Assembly (NCBI GenBank): GCA_944393725.1 | Contig: CALYBC010000009.1 | Coordinates: forward strand, 210,099 to 274,098 | Direction: 5' to 3' | Source: an uncultured Alphaproteobacteria bacterium | GTDB lineage: Bacteria; Pseudomonadota; Alphaproteobacteria; RF32; CAG-239 | Length of the DNA: 64,000 bases | Part shown: positions 54,730-62,467 of the stretch, piece by piece | Layout: each line of letters opens with the position of its first letter | Numbering within the stretch: position 1 is the stretch's first letter | The notes under the pieces: model-generated | Database searches by the model: none | The model's input: only the letters and a program-made list of their open reading frames with translations | What the model was told of the DNA's origin: nothing | Translations under genes and position numbers: made by a program

Positions 54730-56172
54730 ATGAACACAAAAAATTCAATTAAGGAGATTGCTATCTCCATCGTAGCCCCGGTTGTTAAAATGTTTCCAAG
54801 CTGGGCAATGAAACACACCCTCAGAGTGAACGACTATGCCGATTATTTTCAGCTCTCGCATAAAAAAGAGATGGAAATATTAAGCAAGCTTCCCCAGAGC
54901 GAATGGGTGAAGGCTCGGCTTTGGTCGCCGGAGACGAGGATTGCCTGTCTCAAATCACGAGACAAATATCATTATTTTTTAGACGAGATTTTTTCCTCTA
55001 AAGAATTCTGGGCGGCTTATAACAATGAGCTGACTCGCGAAAGAGCCGTTAGGTGCAAAACCTACACGCTGTCTGGCAGCGAAGTTATAAAGGTCTGCAA
55101 CGAAACATGCGGATTTGTAGACTTGTTGTGGTATAAACAACCACACAGCTTTACGGCTGAGGTTGTAAGTAAACTGAGCACAGAGGCAGTTGGGCGTCTT
55201 ATTATTTTTCTCAACGCTGATAAAGCGTATGAGATCGCAGCAAAGCTAGACATGTTGTTGCTGCAAAATATAAAAAAGGCGAAAAGAAACGCTGAGGGAG
55301 CAGCCAAGGTATTGAGTATGCTCCTCATGGATTATACTGCGTATTATCCGTCCATCGAACCGGAGGAGCTGATGAAGCTTGAAGGCTTCAACCAGTGGCT
55401 GGCTAAAGCTGATATTATGGTGGTGACAGATAAATTGTCTACCTACCTAAAAAATTTGGGTAGATATGATTTGTTGCTGCAGTTGCTCGTTAGAGCCTTG
55501 AAGAAAAGGCAATTCGGCATAGAAAAGGATATCTTTTCCTTGCTGCCTAAGAGCTGTAATTGCTATCAAACGGCTGTAACCAAGATGGTCGAAGCCGGGA
55601 TAGCAATGCCTAAAGATTTTGCATTTTTATCTGACGATAAGATAAAAGAGCAAAATTTGAAGCTCTGCCAAATCGATCACCGATTAGATATGATTCCGGA
55701 AATGGATTACAAATATCTATCGGAAAATCAGAAAGAGTGGTTGCTCTATAGCTTGGCTCGAGCAGGGAAACTAAGCCAGCATTTGCTTGATACCGCTTCT
55801 CCAAAAGTCAAGCAAAATTTGCTTGACATTTTGGAGGAAGAAGCACAAGTTGCTTGGTTCAAAGAACTTGTTGTACTGGAACAGAATGGTCGAAAATATG
55901 AAAATATTCAGACCGTCAAAAATCTGGCACATATAAGTGCCAGATTGCAGGCTGCAACGCTGTCTTTTGCCGGTTGGCAGTATGTTTTTGCCGAAAACGG
56001 TTTCTATGACTCCGAGTACTCCTTGGAGTTGTTAAAACGAGGAACCGAAGAGGCGGTAAAGATTTTTGCTGAGAAGCAAGGCTTGACAGCTGAGCAGTAT
56101 GAAGCTCTGCTGATCGGCAATAATAAAGCCTTGGCTCCGGAGCTGAGGAGATATATAAAGAAAAATGTTTAA
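54730..56172 (+). CDS. Hypothetical all-helical protein
   Basis: 480-aa ORF with its own terminator. No motif recognised. Confidence 0.5.
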   Translation: MNTKNSIKEIAISIVAPVVKMFPSWAMKHTLRVNDYADYFQLSHKKEMEILSKLPQSEWVKARLWSPETRIACLKSRDKYHYFLDEIFSSKEFWAAYNNELTRERAVRCKTYTLSGSEVIKVCNETCGFVDLLWYKQPHSFTAEVVSKLSTEAVGRLIIFLNADKAYEIAAKLDMLLLQNIKKAKRNAEGAAKVLSMLLMDYTAYYPSIEPEELMKLEGFNQWLAKADIMVVTDKLSTYLKNLGRYDLLLQLLVRALKKRQFGIEKDIFSLLPKSCNCYQTAVTKMVEAGIAMPKDFAFLSDDKIKEQNLKLCQIDHRLDMIPEMDYKYLSENQKEWLLYSLARAGKLSQHLLDTASPKVKQNLLDILEEEAQVAWFKELVVLEQNGRKYENIQTVKNLAHISARLQAATLSFAGWQYVFAENGFYDSEYSLELLKRGTEEAVKIFAEKQGLTAEQYEALLIGNNKALAPELRRYIKKNV

Positions 56173-56208: not shown

Positions 56209-56315
56209 GTTTTAAAAAGTTAAACTTTTGCCATAAGTTGCTTGACATATAAGCTAAAATAGCTGTAACTTTAGCTTTGTCTAAATTAACTTTTTTAATA
56301 TGGGAGATATCAGCA

Positions 56316-57617
56316 ATGACCGCTCGTACACTGCAAGGATTTATGGAACTGTTACCGCAGGAGCAAATCGTATTTAATCATATGAAGTCAGTCATTGCTC
56401 ATACCTACGAGCTTTTTGGCTTTGCACCGTTGGATACTCCGGTTTTGGAATTGGCCGAAGTTTTGCTCTCAAAATCCGGCGGAGAGACCGAAAAACAAAT
56501 CTATGAATTCAAAAAAGGCGATACCGATATTGCCATGCGTTTTGACTTAACCGTGCCGCTGGCTAAGTATATTGCTCTTTATAACAACGACCTCACCTTC
56601 CCGTTCAAACGCTACCAAATCGGTAAAGTTTATCGCGGTGAACGTCCGCAAAAAGGTCGGTTCAGAGAATTTTACCAATGCGATATCGATATAATCGACC
56701 GCGACGAACTCAATATCGTTTATGATGCCGAAGTGTTGGCGGTTATCTATACCGTGTTCAGCAAACTAAATTTGCCGAAATTCAAAATCTATATCAATAA
56801 CCGCAAGTTGCTCGGCGGCTTTTTGCAGAGCTTGGATATTGCCGATAAGACCGTTGAGGTTTTGCGTCTGGTCGATAAAATCAAAAAAATCCCCGAAGAA
56901 GCTTTCTTGGATGAATTGAGCGATTTGGGGCTTGCCGAAGACAAAAAACAAAAATTGTTAAAATTTATCAAAATCAACGGACTAAACAACGAAATTATCG
57001 CACAACTTGAAAATTTACACATCGAAAACGAAAATTTTGTTGCCGGTCTTGATGAGCTCAAAACAGTTATTGCACAAGCTCAAAACCTTGGCTTGCCGGC
57101 TGAAAATATTCAGATTGATTTGAGCATAACTCGCGGATTGGATTATTATACCGGTACGGTGTATGAAACATTTTTTGATGACTACCCGCAATTTGGTTCG
57201 GTCTGCTCAGGCGGACGCTACGATAATCTATCATCGGTATTTATGGACAAGAAGTTCCCCGGAGTGGGTATTTCCATCGGTCTGACCCGTTTGTTTGACC
57301 AACTTAGGGCTAACAACCTATTGCCCATAAAAGAGCTTACACCAAACAAGGCCCTGATTATTCCGCAAGATGAAGCTTTTGTGAATGAGGCGGTAAATCT
57401 GGCCGGTAAGCTCAGATTACAAAATATCGCCGTTGATGTTATGTATAGACAGTGCAAGTTTAAGAAAAAAATGGAATATGCCAATAAAATCGGCGTGCCG
57501 TTCCTGATTATTATCGGCGAAGAAGAAGCTAAGTCAGGAATGTTTGCTTGCAAAAATATGACCTCGGGCGAGCAAAAAACGCTTAAGCTTGATGAGCTGA
57601 TTGAAACCTTAAAATAA
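56316..57617 (+). CDS. hisS: Histidine--tRNA ligase
   Basis: Class II motifs (RYQIGKVYRGERPQKGRFREF, GGRYD, RGLDYYTG) and a C-terminal anticodon-binding domain. ATG 56316 (MTARTLQGF) is preferred over TTG 56277. Confidence 0.92.
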   Translation: MTARTLQGFMELLPQEQIVFNHMKSVIAHTYELFGFAPLDTPVLELAEVLLSKSGGETEKQIYEFKKGDTDIAMRFDLTVPLAKYIALYNNDLTFPFKRYQIGKVYRGERPQKGRFREFYQCDIDIIDRDELNIVYDAEVLAVIYTVFSKLNLPKFKIYINNRKLLGGFLQSLDIADKTVEVLRLVDKIKKIPEEAFLDELSDLGLAEDKKQKLLKFIKINGLNNEIIAQLENLHIENENFVAGLDELKTVIAQAQNLGLPAENIQIDLSITRGLDYYTGTVYETFFDDYPQFGSVCSGGRYDNLSSVFMDKKFPGVGISIGLTRLFDQLRANNLLPIKELTPNKALIIPQDEAFVNEAVNLAGKLRLQNIAVDVMYRQCKFKKKMEYANKIGVPFLIIIGEEEAKSGMFACKNMTSGEQKTLKLDELIETLK

Positions 57618-57632
57618 TATTATAGTCAGAAC

Positions 57633-57667
57633 AAACCGCCCTTTTTATTTATAAAAGCGGGCGGTTT
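57633..57667. terminator. Bidirectional terminator between hisS and the island
   Basis: AAACCGCCC-loop-GGGCGGTTT followed by T5. Confidence 0.75.
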
Positions 57668-57678
57668 TTGATTATCTG

Positions 57679-58029
57679 TTATATATGCTCAAGCATGTTC
57701 CATAAGGCTATCAACCATGGAGATAATAAAATAAATTTGGCTAGTCTGGGATAATTGCGCATATTGCTCAATGCCAGCAAAAAAATTAGGACTGAAAACT
57801 TAAGATCTATTTTTACTCCCTCAAGATAAAGCTCTTGATTCTGATAATTCCATGCACTCATCGTTGCTTGTGCACCCCAAATTGGATCGTCCTTAGCTGG
57901 CGGATAAAAATATGTTCCCAATAATAACAGAGGCTCCAACATATAAAACGCAACATACCACCTAAAAGGTTTGATAAATGTTTTAATTGCTTGCAGCTTA
58001 TCGCCTAACTTAATCTTATTCATTACCAT
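57679..58029 (-). CDS. Small membrane protein, candidate immunity partner of the upstream toxin domain
   Basis: 116 aa with roughly 3 hydrophobic helices. Its ATG overlaps the TGG-TAA end of the toxin-domain frame (ATGGTAATG). Confidence 0.5.
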   Translation of the reverse strand: MVMNKIKLGDKLQAIKTFIKPFRWYVAFYMLEPLLLLGTYFYPPAKDDPIWGAQATMSAWNYQNQELYLEGVKIDLKFSVLIFLLALSNMRNYPRLAKFILLSPWLIALWNMLEHI

Positions 58030-58802
58030 TTCTCCTTGGTATATTTTACGTAAATCGGAACACTATCTTGGCAATTATCTAGATATTTGCTTAATTTACC
58101 TGTTTGCCATGGTATGTCAATACATCCGGCAGAACCCTTTTCAATACCTCCATGAATTGAAAATCCGTCTCGTCCATAAGTATTGGTATTATTATCAGGT
58201 GTAAGCCAAACTCTTCTTAGTCCCCAAGCAGGGGTAGAACCCCGCCAATTCCCCTGTTTTATAATACCTGCAACTGCATTTATCGGATCAATTGTTTGTC
58301 TCTGGTTCTGTGATGCATAATATGTGCCTTCAGGTATGGGGCCTAAATCTTTTACTGATTGATATTTTTTAGCCTAATAATTTGGATTTCCTGACATTGC
58401 ATCTAATGTATGTTGATAGCTGGAATTTCCTCCATTAAGCTCTAAGTTTTGACCATCAAATGTCATATAACAATTTGCATTATCATTGTTAGGCCTTGAT
58501 AGTGGTTTGGAAAAGCTGTTTTGACTATCCCAATCATTGCTTAGCAACTTGTTTGCCAGTGCATTGGCGGAATTTGAGCTGATATTGGCGACGGAATTTA
58601 CATCCTTACTCAACTCGGCAGATAGACGGTTCATCTCGTCTAAATCAAAACGAGTTTGAAGCTCGTCTCTTAAACTCATATTGCTATAGTCTATCGTATC
58701 CGGTGATTGATATTTTGATTGCAGTGATTGCAATTTTCTCTCTTCCCTTCCCCTCTTTAGTTGCTCAAGCCGTTCTTGAAAAGTTGTGTTGTAGTTTGTC
58801 AT
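58023..58802 (-). pseudogene. Polymorphic-toxin-like gene: conserved N-terminal module plus Tlde1/DUF2778-like (YkuD-fold) domain, interrupted by an in-frame TAG at 58374-58376
   Basis: My own translation gives 142 codons, TAG, then 116 further sense codons with no start codon (GPIPEGTYY...RDGFSIHGGIEKGSAGCID). The stop falls inside the predicted domain. Confidence 0.6.
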
Positions 58803-58950
58803 TTCTTGATGTTTCCTTCCTTATAAAATATTTCTTTACCGATAGTCCGCAATATCATATAGAACATTTTTTGAACTTTGTAAAGTCCTACACTCTACTT
58901 GTCAACAACTTTATTGTGCTTATACTGCTCCTTACACTAAAAAGTTGAAT
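58614..58950. repeat. A-repeat copy 2: promoter, leader and first ~63 codons
   Basis: Direct repeat of 61630-61966 (offset 3016 bp). High identity upstream and over the N-terminal codons, diverging downstream. Confidence 0.85.
58877..58905 (-). promoter_or_regulatory. Sigma70-like promoter TTGACA-N17-TACAAA
   Basis: Read on the minus strand about 70 nt upstream of ATG 58802. Conserved in the paralogous copy at 61893-61921. Confidence 0.45.
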
Positions 58951-58952
58951 CA

Positions 58953-59498
58953 CTATCCTTGTTGAGGGGTTACGGCCCGAATAATCTCGTTTTGATGTGA
59001 CGATACCCAATCTATACCCCAAAGAGCCAGAAAAATACAAACCAATACATAAACATAGGGATACCTTAGCAAAGGACTATGTAAGTCGGCATTTCTATTG
59101 GGCGATGTCGGATAAAAAAACATTAGCAAAACGAGTAATGTATATAGATGAAAAACAATTTTTGATATCGTATCTAAGATACCTATATCATCCAGACCAA
59201 ATGGCTCAAATATCGTGGTAAAAAAGAAGCAAATTGTTGCTAATATTATTATCAATGTGCCTTTGATATTGATGTCGCGACACCTCTTTTGAAATGCTAT
59301 CAACATTATATAGCCATAAATAAAATTTATTATAATGAGTGAAACATCAAATTTTTTCAAAACACTGTCAACAACAGAAGATATTGCCGTAGCAGAAAAA
59401 AATTGTGAACCGTCTATAAACCCTTTGAATGAAAAAAAATATCGCAGAGATAGCTCTTTGGTGCGATTTATTATATGTTGTATGTTTGTGTCTGACAT
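58953..59498 (-). CDS. DUF805-like integral membrane protein (copy B2)
   Basis: FSFKGFIDGSQFF and ...AFQKRCRDINIKG resemble the DUF805 pattern (FSFKGRI...RRLHD.G.SG). It differs from copy B1 at 2 of 181 residues. Confidence 0.6.
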   Translation of the reverse strand: MSDTNIQHIINRTKELSLRYFFSFKGFIDGSQFFSATAISSVVDSVLKKFDVSLIIINFIYGYIMLIAFQKRCRDINIKGTLIIILATICFFFTTIFEPFGLDDIGILDTISKIVFHLYTLLVLLMFFYPTSPNRNADLHSPLLRYPYVYVLVCIFLALWGIDWVSSHQNEIIRAVTPQQG

Positions 59499-59565
59499 TG
59501 ATATTTCCTTTTTTTAGGATTGGGGCAGATATTATTATTTAGATAATACCAACCCCTATCTGCCT
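58953..59565. repeat. B-repeat copy 2 (gene plus ~70-bp leader)
   Basis: Direct repeat of 60472-61082 (offset 1519 bp). Confidence 0.9.
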
Positions 59566-59571
59566 ACTTTA

Positions 59572-59649
59572 TTATTCTATTTTGTAACAGCCGTGTTCTT
59601 TATCCCATTTCCAGCAATCCGCACGGCAACGATGCTCGTTATAATCCCA
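59572..59649. repeat. C-repeat copy 2 (78 bp, 3' end of the gene)
   Basis: 3 mismatches versus 59997-60074. Confidence 0.9.
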
Positions 59650-59970
59650 TACTCCCGAGCCACTGTCAAAGCATCTGTCAATGGCATGTCGTTCAACTAT
59701 AGGCGGATAATAAAAAAACATTAAAAGATAAATAATAAATGATATTGCAAATATTATGTATGACACTTTTCTTATGCTTGCAAAAAATGTAGCAGCAAAA
59801 GAAATTAAACATATTACCATTACAATACCATAAATTATAAAGCTATATTCGGTAATTGAGAATGCTATGAAAAAGTCAACGGCAAAAAAGACTAATAACA
59901 ACAGAAATATTGCTATTTTTAGTGCTGATTTTGTGGCTTTGAATATAATATTTACAATATTTTTATGCAT
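59572..59970 (-). CDS. Small membrane protein with a Cys/Trp-rich C-terminal motif (copy C2)
   Basis: ATG 59970 follows GAAGGT. The protein starts MHKNIVNI, has roughly 3 TM helices, and ends WDYNEHRCRADCWKWDKEHGCYKIE. The track's longer 60054 start overlaps C1 out of frame. Confidence 0.5.
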   Translation of the reverse strand: MHKNIVNIIFKATKSALKIAIFLLLLVFFAVDFFIAFSITEYSFIIYGIVMVICLISFAATFFASIRKVSYIIFAISFIIYLLMFFYYPPIVERHAIDRCFDSGSGVWDYNEHRCRADCWKWDKEHGCYKIE

Positions 59971-59996
59971 ATTAATACCTTCGTGATTGTAAGAAA

Positions 59997-60074
59997 TTAT
60001 TCTATTTTGTAACAGCCGTGTTCTGTATCCCATTTCCAGCAATCCGTCCGGCAACGATGCTCGTTATAATCCCA
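59997..60074. repeat. C-repeat copy 1
   Basis: Partner of 59572-59649. Confidence 0.9.
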
Positions 60075-60410
60075 AACTTTAGAACTATCTATACAATCTG
60101 TATAAGCCATATATTGTTTATATTGCGGAAATATGCCATAGCTTTTCTCAATACATAATAATGATAATATCCAGATTATCATCATAATTTTTTTCTTAAC
60201 AAACAAACTTGACAAACACACCAAGCTTAAAATTACTGACAAACATAACTTAAACTTAAGAATATTTTGCAAACTACTGTCTTTAATTGATGAGATATCA
60301 AACCATAGCCAAAAATTGCCTAATATATAAAGGAAGAATAATATACAAAACATTGCACTTATTCCGATAGAAAAAAACTTGATGGCTTTTTGTAAAATTA
60401 TTTTATGCAT
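59997..60410 (-). CDS. Small membrane protein with a Cys/Trp-rich C-terminal motif (copy C1)
   Basis: ATG 60410 follows AAGGAAG. The protein starts MHKIILQK and ends WDYNEHRCRTDCWKWDTEHGCYKIE. Confidence 0.5.
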   Translation of the reverse strand: MHKIILQKAIKFFSIGISAMFCILFFLYILGNFWLWFDISSIKDSSLQNILKFKLCLSVILSLVCLSSLFVKKKIMMIIWILSLLCIEKSYGIFPQYKQYMAYTDCIDSSKVWDYNEHRCRTDCWKWDTEHGCYKIE

Positions 60411-60471
60411 ACTATCTTCCTTTATATCGTTTTTCATATTTTTTGTGCTGTCTGTTATAATTTTACCAATC

Positions 60472-61017
60472 CTATCCTTGTTGAGGGGTTACGGCCTGAA
60501 TAATCTCGTTTTGATGTGACGATACCCAATCTATACCCCAAAGAGCCAGAAAAATACAAACCAATACATAAACATAGGGATACCTTAGCAAAGGACTATG
60601 TAAATCGGCATTTCTGTTGGGCGATGTCGGATAAAAAAACATTAACAAAACAAGTAATGTATATAAATGGAAAACAATTTTTGATATCGTATCTAAGATA
60701 CCTATATCATCCAGACCAAATGGCTCAAATATTGTGGTAAAAAAGAAGCAAATCGTTGCTAATATTATTATCAATGTACCTTTGATATTGATGTCGCGGC
60801 ACCTCTTTTGAAATGCTATCAGCATTATATAGCCATAAATAAAATTTATTATAATGAGCGAAACATCAAATTTTTTCAAAACACTGTCAACAACAGAAGA
60901 GATTGCCGTAGCCGAAAAAAATTGTGAACCGTCTATAAAGCCTTTGAATGAAAAAAAATATCGCAGAGATAGCTCTTTGGTGCGATTTCTTATATGTTGT
61001 ATGTTTGTGTCTGACAT
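60472..61017 (-). CDS. DUF805-like integral membrane protein (copy B1)
   Basis: See copy B2. Located immediately downstream of the 241-aa family member. Confidence 0.6.
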   Translation of the reverse strand: MSDTNIQHIRNRTKELSLRYFFSFKGFIDGSQFFSATAISSVVDSVLKKFDVSLIIINFIYGYIMLIAFQKRCRDINIKGTLIIILATICFFFTTIFEPFGLDDIGILDTISKIVFHLYTLLVLLMFFYPTSPNRNADLHSPLLRYPYVYVLVCIFLALWGIDWVSSHQNEIIQAVTPQQG

Positions 61018-61082
61018 TGATATTTCCTTTTTTAGGATTGGGGCAGATATTATTTAGATAGTACCCACCCCTATATGCCTAA
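60472..61082. repeat. B-repeat copy 1
   Basis: Partner of 58953-59565. Confidence 0.9.
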
Positions 61083-61092
61083 TATATTATTT

Positions 61093-61818
61093 TCATTTTT
61101 TCAACCAATTTGATAAACCAAATTGATTTAAAAGACCCGAAAAAGCACCTGCTGATTTGGCATCGGCCCAGGCTTTTGCTCCGTATTCTATTACATCATT
61201 AGCTATCTTGTTGGCTCTGCCTAGGCCTGCCGCTTCGGCTTGCCTTTGCATTTGTTGCTTGTTTTTGTTATAATAATCACCCAGATATTTTGAACTTAGT
61301 TTGTCAAAATACCCGTTTGTAGCTCCGTTAACAGCCGTCAACATACCGCTTTCAATTCCTTCACCAAACCCTTGCAATGCTGCTGCGGCTATCTCCCATG
61401 CATGACTTTTGGGTACATAACTTGGCATTGGTTTGCCGGTTACCGTGTAAAAGCTGTTTTGATTATTAGGCTTGTATGCCCTAAGAGAGCTTACAATAGC
61501 TTCATTATCTTTGTCTTCTTGAGATATTGGTTTGTAAAATCCAGTTTGATTGGCAAAAGTATTGGGTTGCAATGTACCAACCATGGTATTATCGGAGTTT
61601 TTTCCAATATTATTGTTTCCAGAGCCTAACTTGGCGGAAAGACGGTTCATCTCGTCTAAATCAAAACGAGTTTGAAGTTCTTCCCTCAAGCTCATGTTGC
61701 CATAATTTATCTTTTCGGGATTTTGATATTTTGCTTGCAGTGATTGCAATTTTCTCTCTTCCCTTCCCCTCTTTAGTTGCTCAAGCCGTTCTTGAAAAGT
61801 TGTGTTGTTGTTTGTCAT
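61093..61818 (-). CDS. Polymorphic-toxin-like protein: same N-terminal module as 58802, unrelated C-terminal domain of unknown function
   Basis: MTNNNTTFQERLEQLKRGREERKLQSLQ... is shared with the 58802 gene. Similarity fades after about residue 105. No signal peptide. Confidence 0.55.
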   Translation of the reverse strand: MTNNNTTFQERLEQLKRGREERKLQSLQAKYQNPEKINYGNMSLREELQTRFDLDEMNRLSAKLGSGNNNIGKNSDNTMVGTLQPNTFANQTGFYKPISQEDKDNEAIVSSLRAYKPNNQNSFYTVTGKPMPSYVPKSHAWEIAAAALQGFGEGIESGMLTAVNGATNGYFDKLSSKYLGDYYNKNKQQMQRQAEAAGLGRANKIANDVIEYGAKAWADAKSAGAFSGLLNQFGLSNWLKK

Positions 61819-61966
61819 TTCTTGATGTTTCCTTCCTTATAAAATATTTCTTTACCGATAGTCCGCAACATTATATAGAACATTTTTTGAACTTTGTAAA
61901 GTCCTACACTCTACTTATCAACAACTTTATTGTGCTTACACCACTACTTGCACTAAAAAGTTGAAC
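61630..61966. repeat. A-repeat copy 1
   Basis: Partner of 58614-58950. Confidence 0.85.
61893..61921 (-). promoter_or_regulatory. Sigma70-like promoter TTGATA-N17-TACAAA
   Basis: Paralogous to the 58877-58905 element at the same 3016-bp offset. Confidence 0.4.
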
Positions 61967-61981
61967 CGCCCTTTATAAATA

Positions 61982-62002
61982 AGCGGGCTATCGCTAGCCC
62001 GC
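61982..62002 (-). terminator. Terminator hairpin downstream of rplS
   Basis: AGCGGGCTA-TCG-CTAGCCCGCT perfect palindrome followed on the minus strand by a T-rich stretch. Confidence 0.6.
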
Positions 62003-62036: not shown

Positions 62037-62432
62037 CTACTCGCCTTTGCTCTCGTCTTTGGCTTTGGCTGTAGCTGTCAAATCGTCGGCAATACGAGCC
62101 GAACGACCACGCAATGCACGCAAGAAATACAATTTGGCACGACGAACTTTACCAATACGAGCAACCTCAATCTTGGCTACATTCGGAGAGTATAGAGGAA
62201 ATACTCTTTCTACACCCTCACCAAACGAAATTTTGCGTACGGTGAACGAAGAATTCAAACCATCGTTTTTGCGAGCAATGCAAACGCCTTCGTATACCTG
62301 AATACGTTCTCTGTCGCCTTCTTTTACTTTGGTATGAACTTTAAGAGTATCACCGGGCTTAAAGTCGGGAAGATTTTTACCTTCGAGCAACTTGTCCATC
62401 TGCTCTTTTTCAATGTTTTCAATAATGTTCAT
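62037..62432 (-). CDS. rplS: 50S ribosomal protein L19
   Basis: [11 protein letters not shown]... aligns with the L19 N-terminus. [22 protein letters not shown] and RRAKLYFLR motifs, plus a short acidic/Ala C-terminal extension. Confidence 0.93.
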
Positions 62433-62467
62433 AGTTTTACCCTTTTCCATTACATTTGGTTAGTTTT

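Follow-up and report, generated by a model that had tools for sequence, protein, structure and literature searches.

Gene content and repeats of the hisS-rplS island

In a 64,000-nucleotide stretch of DNA from an uncultured Alphaproteobacteria bacterium (assembly GCA_944393725.1, contig CALYBC010000009.1, positions 210,099 to 274,098; hereafter the window), seven open reading frames (ORFs) form an island between hisS (56277-57617, plus strand) and rplS (62037-62450, minus strand), which we regard with high confidence as an array of toxin/immunity cassettes used in interbacterial competition. All seven are encoded on the minus strand, as an earlier note made from the sequence alone had described, and are transcribed in the order A1 (241 aa), B1 (181 aa), C1 (137 aa), C2 (132 aa), B2 (181 aa), A2 and D (116 aa). 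The GC content of the island is 29-36%, compared to about 40-42% in its flanks, and the region is bordered by two hairpins, one after rplS and the other after D, the last gene. The latter, a GC-rich hairpin assigned to neither strand and read from the sequence of the D/hisS gap (57633-57667; AAACCGCCC...GGGCGGTTT), was missed by a simple terminator scan and probably ends the island as a bidirectional terminator. The island contains neither a tRNA nor a match to an Rfam family.

Self-comparison of the window at the DNA level recovered the three pairs of direct repeats of the earlier note, at the spacings given there. Repeat A (338 bp, 91.7% identity, spacing 3016) comprises the promoter, the 5' untranslated region (5'UTR) and the first 64 codons of A1 (61965-61628, minus strand) and of A2 (58949-58612, minus strand). 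Repeat B (61099-60468 vs 59583-58948) extends over 637 bp at 95.4% identity with a spacing of about 1516-1519, and repeat C (60078-59996 vs 59653-59571) over 83 bp at 95% identity with a spacing of 425, so that the three pairs are nested in an A-B-C-C'-B'-A' arrangement.

The toxin genes A1 and A2

A1 (61093-61818, minus strand) encodes a protein made of three parts. Its N-terminal module (N-module, residues 1 to about 65) is predicted as a helical hairpin; after it come a linker of low complexity, in which QNSF junction motifs occur, and a C-terminal domain (residues ~136-241) that is helical, rich in Gly and Ala and uncharacterised. In the AlphaFold2 (AF2) model, the predicted local distance difference test (pLDDT) score is about 80 for residues 8-63 and below 50 for the remainder. 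The C-terminal domain had no match in Pfam, NCBIfam or the PDB, a Foldseek search of the model against the PDB returned nothing (best E 0.6), and tblastn of A1 against phage and plasmid collections gave no match. Profiles of the A1-type C-terminus and of the C-terminus found in the related locus L021 likewise had no match in the PDB, nor did hhalign find any match between both families. Homologues of A1 were found among related proteins (P0001-P0006).

A2 (58023-58802, minus strand) carries the same N-module followed by a Tlde1 (L,D-transpeptidase-like) toxin domain. The earlier note had taken it for an intact gene of 259 aa; its three-frame translation revealed an in-frame TAG at codon 143 (58374-58376), leaving a predicted product of 142 aa that lacks the catalytic region. 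The Tlde1-like nature claimed for the C-terminus was borne out by a match to PF10908 across the stop (residues 132-230; 41.8 bits vs a cut-off of 30.1), and the FSIHGG...GSAGC region (FSIHGGIEKGSAGCID) is still in frame 3' of the TAG. The catalytic Cys of Tlde1a follows S-x-G (PMC9638812), and the GSAGC region of A2 corresponds to this S-x-G-C motif. At the position of the stop the codon is CAG in seven related loci, and the TAG is a genuine C-to-T nonsense allele, since the truncated 142-aa allele recurs in other metagenome contigs (P0010, whose residue 4 is N and not Y). A2 is thus a pseudogene, with intact orthologues in the related loci L005, L009, L011 and L027, and A1 is therefore the only intact toxin gene of the window.

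The common promoter and 5'UTR that the earlier note had assigned to A1 and A2 were found, but the near-identity of the proteins stops at about residue 64, where the DNA repeat ends, and not at about residue 105; over 108 aa the identity is 65%. Neither protein has a hydrophobic segment or a signal peptide, in agreement with that note. Searches of the island proteins against Pfam, NCBIfam, PADLOC and PHROGs produced the Tlde1 domain of A2 as their sole match, with no hit to a well-characterised non-toxin family, and phmmer of the Tlde1 part against PDB sequences gave no match. Models for OXA beta-lactamases of the "exception" type scored 20 bits on island proteins against cut-offs above 560, and were discarded as noise.

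A constant N-terminal module joined to unrelated C-terminal domains

The N-module is about 65 aa long and is modeled as a helical hairpin (residues 8-30 and 44-63, pLDDT about 80) followed by a linker of low confidence, which in A1 (residues 66-135, pLDDT below 50) is rich in P, Q, S and N and was read as disordered. It belongs to no Pfam or NCBIfam family and corresponds to no known marker domain of type VI (T6SS), type VII (T7SS) or type IV (T4SS) secretion systems, so the earlier statement that it matches no known delivery domain holds after Pfam, NCBIfam and profile searches. An exhaustive HMMER search of 1.84 billion representatives with a profile of 66 positions found the module in 44 clusters, and a word-indexed search of 5.8 billion proteins returned 16 clusters related to A1, or 91 when a paralogue served as the query. 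Judged by these searches, the N-module is a narrow and apparently lineage-confined family. In nearly all 44 clusters it occupies the first residues of the protein, the exceptions being P0060, a fusion to a truncated lipoprotein, and a small number of forms in which the motif is duplicated. Every protein is of 387 aa or less; complete module-bearing toxins have about 180-310 aa.

Clustering of the last 95 residues of 133 module-bearing proteins separated at least six to eight unrelated C-terminal families joined to this one module, which supports the classification as a polymorphic toxin/immunity locus proposed in the earlier note. These tips include an SAA-like domain of the prok-SAA Lipocone group (PF00277, E 6.5e-20), an endolysin-like domain (phrog_7, E 1.8e-4), Tlde1, the A1 type, a 262-289-aa type, a "GDCS" type and singletons, and at the linker/tip boundary most of them show the short conserved motif QNSF[SY] (STWDN in paralogues). 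For the identifiable tips (Tlde1, SAA-like and endolysin-like) the expected target is the cell envelope, reached from its periplasmic side: peptidoglycan for Tlde1, and lipid head groups or lipid II for the SAA-like Lipocone.

One alternative is that the N-module is an EAD7-like adaptor (EAD, effector-associated domain) that, through homotypic interaction, couples effectors to an intracellular, NTPase-based conflict or abortive-infection system acting in the producer itself. The SLRDELQTRFDLDE helix repeatedly matches EAD7 (PF19960) weakly (E 0.0021-0.08, 13-18 bits), and EADs are small helical domains that occur on varied effectors, including peptidoglycan-targeting ones (PMC7159879). Against this, every match lies below the gathering score of 32 bits and covers positions 1-26 or 1-40 of a profile of 62, that is, under two thirds of it. 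Such systems are defined by a second copy of the domain on a core component such as VMAP, iSTAND or GAP1, whereas the exhaustive search found the N-module on small toxin-like proteins only, and no PADLOC match was obtained. What fits interbacterial antagonism instead are the membrane proteins encoded downstream, with Cys-rich domains that face outward, the orphan immunity genes and the restriction of toxin activity to the periplasm. Membership of the N-module in EAD7 was therefore rejected, as a partial match under threshold with no core component carrying the module, and an intracellular role of this kind is highly improbable.

Several variants of the module-bearing proteins deserve mention. 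The commonest tip, the 289-aa type (L021:417-1286, P0017-P0039), matches about 165 N-terminal positions of phrog_5880 (E 9.6e-9), a phage family of 661 positions and unknown function, in what we consider a weak match; one or two tandem 98-aa membrane proteins are encoded downstream of these toxins. Some distant members (P0125-P0128, e.g. L028:152-904) carry the PDYSKMSLREELE helix motif twice in tandem at their N-terminus, and the conserved second helix of the N-module may be its functional core. In P0051 (L025:10001-11164; also P0044, P0060 and others), the first 120 aa or so of a conserved alpha/beta-hydrolase lipoprotein are fused to helix 2 of the module and a 289-aa-type toxin. This allele is widespread, being indexed in 81 blocks of the collection, and its fused ORF begins after a stop codon, without a lipoprotein signal peptide, and looks like a deletion remnant; with the signal peptide lost, the P0044/P0051 fusions were rejected as a sign of Sec/Lol export.

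The immunity-like genes B, C and D

B1 (60472-61017, minus strand) encodes a membrane protein of 181 aa with four hydrophobic segments, i.e. about four transmembrane (TM) helices, and a weak similarity to DUF805 that falls under the cut-off. B2 (58953-59498, minus strand) is a second intact copy, and is the one that matches the single, disrupted B gene of the related locus L001. The two copies differ at 17 nucleotides, equivalent to 15 synonymous and 2 non-synonymous codon changes, and this low share of non-synonymous changes (2 of 17) argues that both are kept by purifying selection and do not derive from a fresh in-place duplication. Synteny points to B as the putative immunity partner of the A1-type C-terminus. 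A B gene directly follows the A1-type toxin in L009, and the order in L007 is an A1-like toxin, a diverged B-like ORF and then a B homologue; in L001, where the A1-type toxin is absent, B is frameshifted.

C1 (59997-60410, minus strand) is of 137 aa from the ATG at 60410, or 146 aa from an upstream ATG at 60437, and has three TM helices followed by a C-terminal domain with four cysteines (4-Cys). C2 (59572-59970, minus strand; 132 aa) belongs to the same family, and its AF2 model (pLDDT 88.9) contains three TM helices, a helix at residues 89-103 and four short strands; a Foldseek search of this model against the PDB gave generic helical-membrane matches only. The family consensus is C-x5-VWD-x5-CRxDC-x2-W-x4-GC, with C106, C120, C124 and C133 invariant in 11 sequences. 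That C1 and C2 form a paralogous pair is true of their last 83 bp, which are repeat-like (95%), but the proteins are only about 40% identical. This pattern suggests gene conversion or a very strong constraint on the 3' end of the 4-Cys domain.

The immunity type described for prok-SAA/Min-Wnt Lipocone toxins consists of a helix and four strands with four cysteines (Burroughs et al., bioRxiv 10.1101/2025.01.14.632903), and by their architecture C1 and C2 fit this published description. C1 is 97% identical to the gene located directly after the SAA-like toxin P0011 in L001, and the N-module-SAA toxins of L001, L012, L017, L028 and L032 have a gene of the C family directly after them. As no SAA-like toxin is encoded in the window, C1 and C2 are orphans with a predicted immunity function. 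The earlier note had placed small membrane immunity-like genes downstream of the toxins; not all of these are partners of the toxins present, as C1 and C2 belong with the absent SAA-like type and B2 is a second copy of the partner of A1.

D (57679-58029, minus strand; 116 aa) is intact and its start overlaps the stop of A2. The earlier note had listed it as a small membrane gene; its product is weakly hydrophobic only, and not a clear multi-pass membrane protein. It matches no profile family and was seen only beside the Tlde1 genes of this lineage, directly after Tlde1 in five loci (L001, L005, L009, L011 and L027), a synteny that argues for D as the putative immunity partner of Tlde1.

Cassette turnover at the junction

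Comparison of the hisS-rplS junction among related genomes, which the earlier note had recommended, revealed that both content and order of the cassettes vary. Together with the varied C-termini and the lack of matches to well-characterised non-toxin families, this means that none of the three outcomes named in the earlier note as counting against its reading was obtained. At least nine related loci with differing cassette orders lie between rplS and hisS, on contigs of metagenomes or metagenome-assembled genomes (MAGs) labeled as uncultured Alphaproteobacteria, proteobacterium or Azospirillaceae. From rplS to hisS, L001, L002 and L006 contain an N-module-SAA-like toxin (P0011), C1, C2, a frameshifted B, N-module-Tlde1 (frameshifted in L001) and D, whereas the order in L009 is N-module-Tlde1, D, an N-module-A1-type toxin and B, followed by fragments of C and D. 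L011 starts with N-module-Tlde1, D, B and an N-module-SAA toxin, L012 has B, an N-module-SAA-like toxin and C1, and L027 contains an intact N-module-Tlde1, D and three more genes, among them one for an N-module toxin and one for a B-like protein. Across these arrangements the same pairings were observed consistently, namely Tlde1 with D, the A1 C-terminus with B, and the SAA-like tip with C.

The window and L001 are colinear at about 94-96% identity apart from one segment. Where L001 has its SAA-like tip of about 390 bp, the window has the linker and tip of A1 (61601-61099) and, in addition, a B cassette (61099-60468). The window thus has one cassette difference upstream of an existing C1-C2-B-A2-D array, and it is this that generates the A-B-C-C'-B'-A' order. 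The concentric structure emphasized in the earlier note is therefore best read as a side effect of the replacement of a single cassette, taking an L001-like arrangement as the reference, and its nested symmetry as a historical accident rather than a functional design. Repeats A, B and C stay substrates for further recombination.

The earlier note had also predicted the product of a crossover between A1 and A2, and a natural equivalent is present in L005, from the closest MAG, where an A1-type head and linker are joined in frame at QNSF to an intact Tlde1, followed by D and hisS. L005 begins inside the head, and L008, a contig of the same MAG that contains rplS, breaks off in the head downstream of that gene. 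Their sequences share an exact overlap of 126 bp, and the assembly break between them is compatible with one A gene or more in this strain. The chimera itself is unlikely to be an assembly artefact, because its junction is located outside the long repeat.

Tlde1 has been lost twice independently with D kept, through the TAG in the window and a frameshift in L001, which suggests recurrent loss of toxins with retention of their immunity genes. In its present state the window would encode one live pair, formed by A1 and B1, together with C1, C2 and B2 as orphan or spare immunity genes and D as the survivor of a dead A2. Such inactivated copies could also be taken as signs that the whole island is a decaying remnant without current function, with repeats that merely record past duplications, and the frameshifts of Tlde1 and B in L001 and the widespread P0051 fusion to a truncated lipoprotein without its signal peptide add to the nonsense mutation of A2 in this respect. 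However, A1, B1, B2, C1, C2 and D are intact, the changes between B1 and B2 are mostly synonymous, intact versions of Tlde1 exist in several relatives, and the promoter and operator described below are conserved across diverged lineages, all of which makes simple decay very unlikely.

A conserved, predicted LexA-type operator in the toxin promoters

The repeated promoter contains a conserved element, putatively of the LexA type, that the earlier note had missed. The predicted promoter of A1 (61870-61900, minus strand) consists of a -35 box TTTACA (61900-61895), a GTTCAAAAAATGTTC box (61892-61878) and a -10 box TATATAAT (61877-61870), and that of A2 (minus strand, within repeat A at 58612-58949) of a -35 box at 58884-58879, a GTTC-N7-GTTC box at 58876-58862 and a -10 box TATATGAT at 58861-58854. 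Both promoters read TTTACA-AA-GTTCAAAAAATGTTC-TATATAAT, so that the box fills the spacer between -35 and -10. A simple promoter scan did not list TTTACA-17-TATATA under its scoring rules and returned no more matches than in shuffled sequences; the promoter call therefore rests on conservation across loci.

In the 334 kb of related DNA, 16 of the 22 GTTC-N7-GTTC sites are located upstream of N-module genes, 15 of them at 65-77 nt from the ATG and one, in the distant locus L032, at 172 nt. An alignment of ten diverged promoters is invariant at the -35 box (TT.AC), at the two GTTC half-sites and where the -10 box begins, with an N7 spacer that varies among promoters (AAAAAAT, AACAAAT, GACAAAT, GATTTTC, TTTTTTT). 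GTTCN7GTTC is an SOS box in Alphaproteobacteria besides Caulobacter crescentus, and colicin genes classically have a repressor site that fills the spacer of their promoter. In C. crescentus itself the same sequence is the SOS box (PMC9578287). On this basis the A promoters are probably under LexA-type control through the predicted operator, and the operator suggests a shift of the likely biology of the island toward damage-induced bacteriocins.

Several observations weigh against this assignment. The only two GTTC-N7-GTTC sites of the window are those of the two A promoters, and one independent site per 64 kb is the chance level, so the count by itself proves nothing and the weight falls on position and conservation. 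The LexA assignment is drawn from motif identity and that conservation alone, and the related DNA examined contained no recA, lexA, uvrA, uvrB or ssb motifs for a comparison within the lineage. The box is absent from the second N-module genes of L009 and L013 and from the entire MDFETYKRK paralogue group, which has a gene of the XRE-type helix-turn-helix (HTH) family upstream instead.

In the MDFETYKRK loci (L016:9223-9942, L017:9264-9944 and L023:9211-9930), the XRE-type HTH protein encoded immediately upstream is of about 239 aa and is a possible alternative regulator, perhaps CI/PrtR-like; genes for an alpha/beta-hydrolase lipoprotein and for a large autotransporter are found repeatedly a few kb upstream of these loci. 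A further conserved GTTC-N7-GTTC site (GTTCCAACAATGTTC / GTTCAAACAATGTTC) was found at L007:314 and L021:8346, inside a larger ORF of two MAGs and 30-40 nt upstream of a possible internal start, where it may be conserved coding sequence.

Delivery route of the toxins

Across about 30 loci, drawn from many MAGs, the ±10 kb on either side contained no secretion genes, and no conserved ones were found in the flanks of distant family members, whose contigs are of 1-2.5 kb only. Within the 64-kb window, no ORF was recognised as secretion-like by its length and N-terminal sequence, profile searches having covered the island ORFs and one 480-aa ORF next to hisS, and to this extent the earlier claim that the window encodes no secretion apparatus stands. 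Tlde1 exerts its toxicity only after targeting to the periplasm (PMC9638812), and a leaderless cytoplasmic precursor is therefore expected to be harmless to its producer.

The explanation that we favor, as slightly more likely than not, is that the island is a hotspot array of cassettes for SOS-derepressed bacteriocins resembling colicin M or pesticin. According to this model, the chromosomal hotspot would hold interbacterial toxin genes and genes for membrane-bound immunity proteins in an array. Each toxin consists of a constant head of about 65 aa, a disordered linker ending in a QNSF-type junction and an exchangeable killing domain that travels with its own immunity gene (Tlde1 with D, the A1 type with B, the SAA-like type with C). 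Recombination at the head, promoter and junction would swap cassettes and leave displaced orphan immunity genes behind. Derepression of LexA (SOS) would then lead a damaged subpopulation to make toxin without a signal peptide and to release it, the N-module and linker would serve as a trafficking module for uptake or export, and membrane-anchored, outward-facing immunity proteins would protect kin. Of the elements of this model, the anatomy of the genes, their modularity, the variation of the cassettes, the pairings by synteny and the conservation of the operator are observations, whereas toxicity, immunity, the binding of LexA and the route of release or uptake are predictions.

The delivery step is the more tentative part of this explanation. 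A colicin-like route, as opposed to a contact-dependent machine, is a plausible possibility that we put forward with reserve, favored because of the predicted operator, the lack of secretion genes in the ±10 kb flanks, the toxins being small and modular, their exclusively envelope-directed tips and the harmlessness of Tlde1 in the cytoplasm. More speculatively still, the module and its QNSF-type linker could constitute a previously unrecognised trafficking route that brings leaderless, SOS-induced bacteriocins of uncultured and probably host-associated Alphaproteobacteria, with Tlde1, SAA-like Lipocone, endolysin-like and several uncharacterised killing domains, into the periplasm of competitors without a T6SS. 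Counting against a bacteriocin are that no lysis gene, TonB box or receptor-binding domain was identified and no colicin or pyocin profile matched, that the A1 C-terminus has no fold or family recognisable by AF2, Foldseek or profile searches, and that the toxicity of A1 and the immunity conferred by B are both predictions from sequence and gene order. Moreover, characterised Tlde1 proteins are T6SS effectors (PMC9638812).

This last point also bears on a rather unlikely but serious alternative, in which a contact-dependent machine encoded elsewhere in the genome uses the N-module for loading or recognition and the island is an auxiliary cluster of effectors and immunity proteins; the machine would most likely be a T6SS, with a type I secretion system (T1SS), a T4SS or an extracellular contractile injection system as further possibilities. 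A short constant N-terminal domain on many tips is the design of the MIX, FIX and RIX classes of T6SS effectors, and the organization of the N-module resembles it. The envelope-acting tips and the lack of a signal peptide would fit delivery to the periplasm by a T6SS, which is where the characterised Tlde1 effectors are delivered (PMC9638812). On the opposite side, the ±10 kb around the approximately 30 loci contain no gene for Hcp, VgrG, PAAR or an adaptor, nor any other secretion gene, and the N-module has no Pfam or NCBIfam match to a T6SS, T7SS or T4SS marker domain. Long, disordered and rich in P, Q, S and N, the linker resembles colicins more closely, and a conserved LexA-type operator, if the prediction is correct, is typical of bacteriocins and not of T6SS cargo.

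Comparison with known systems

Among known systems, the arrays of CdiA-CT/CdiI (contact-dependent growth inhibition, CDI) and Rhs-CT/RhsI share with the island a constant N-terminal region and a hypervariable C-terminal tip, separated by a junction motif that is QNSF here and VENN or PxxxxDPxGL there. They also share an immunity gene immediately downstream, leftover orphan immunity genes and toxin fragments, and the exchange of cassettes between close relatives at one chromosomal site. In contrast to CDI and Rhs, the proteins of the island are tiny, without a filamentous or Rhs shell, a recognised secretion domain or a linked transporter, and each cassette has its own full promoter and head instead of being a promoterless orphan tip. 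As in polymorphic toxins generally (in the sense of Zhang/Aravind), unrelated C-termini are exchanged, a downstream immunity gene co-varies with them by synteny, and orphan cassettes occur, but neither profile searches nor inspection of ±10 kb around the loci detected a recognisable trafficking domain or a linked secretion system.

Colicin M, pesticin and the M- and S-type pyocins resemble the island toxins in being leaderless, modular proteins of a few hundred residues, with an N-terminal trafficking region that includes a disordered stretch and, at the C-terminus, a domain which kills from the periplasm, by cleavage of lipid II in colicin M and as a lysozyme in pesticin. A membrane-anchored immunity protein, an SOS-type operator overlapping the promoter and the swapping of domains among relatives complete the likeness, killing, trafficking, immunity and SOS control being predictions in the case of the island. 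The differences are that no sequence or profile similarity to these bacteriocins was detected, that no TonB/Tol box, receptor domain or lysis gene was identified, that the N-module is a predicted folded helical hairpin, and that the genes are chromosomal genes of uncultured Alphaproteobacteria in which LexA control is a prediction.

The A2-D pair resembles Tlde1/Tldi1 of Salmonella in its Tlde1 domain with an HGG...SxGC region and in the small immunity-like gene that overlaps its stop. Unlike the Salmonella protein, A2 has an N-terminal extension of 108 aa and no T6SS genes nearby, and although it has the profile match and the catalytic region of a Tlde1 effector, its reading frame is not intact, A2 being a nonsense pseudogene. 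C1 and C2 share with the immunity proteins of prok-SAA Lipocone systems their architecture and four invariant cysteines, and their orthologues are located directly after N-module-SAA toxins, but the window differs from those systems in having no SAA-like toxin. The trafficking domains that Burroughs et al. (bioRxiv 10.1101/2025.01.14.632903) list do not include the N-module carried by the SAA toxins of this lineage.

Precedents exist for polymorphic toxin loci, for orphan immunity genes, for Tlde1 and for SAA-like Lipocone toxins with their 4-Cys immunity proteins. What is new is the N-module family, which the profile libraries searched do not recognise, its use with this set of tips, the fixed hotspot at housekeeping genes and the conserved, predicted LexA-type operator. 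The module adds to the catalogue of polymorphic toxins a constant head that is apparently confined to a poorly known lineage of uncultured Alphaproteobacteria and whose partners are toxins that target the envelope and are otherwise seen with T6SS or in different settings. If the boxes are indeed LexA sites, Tlde1 and SAA-like Lipocone toxins could be deployed as damage-induced bacteriocins, and would be the first of their types used as diffusible, LexA-controlled ones, and the N-module could be used to trace the machinery of their export or uptake. In addition, the locus provides a clean natural series of cassette replacement, retention of orphan immunity genes and loss of toxins at one fixed site, useful for studying the turnover of toxin/immunity repertoires within a species.

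Sequence divergence next to hisS

Just upstream of hisS, an ORF of 480 aa on the plus strand (54730-56172) has no match in Pfam, NCBIfam or PADLOC. Its product shares 78-83% amino acid identity with its counterparts in L001 and L005, where HisS is 99% identical, and about 36-39% with those of distant MAGs, where HisS is 84-91% identical, and the fast-evolving zone may reach beyond the island into this ORF.

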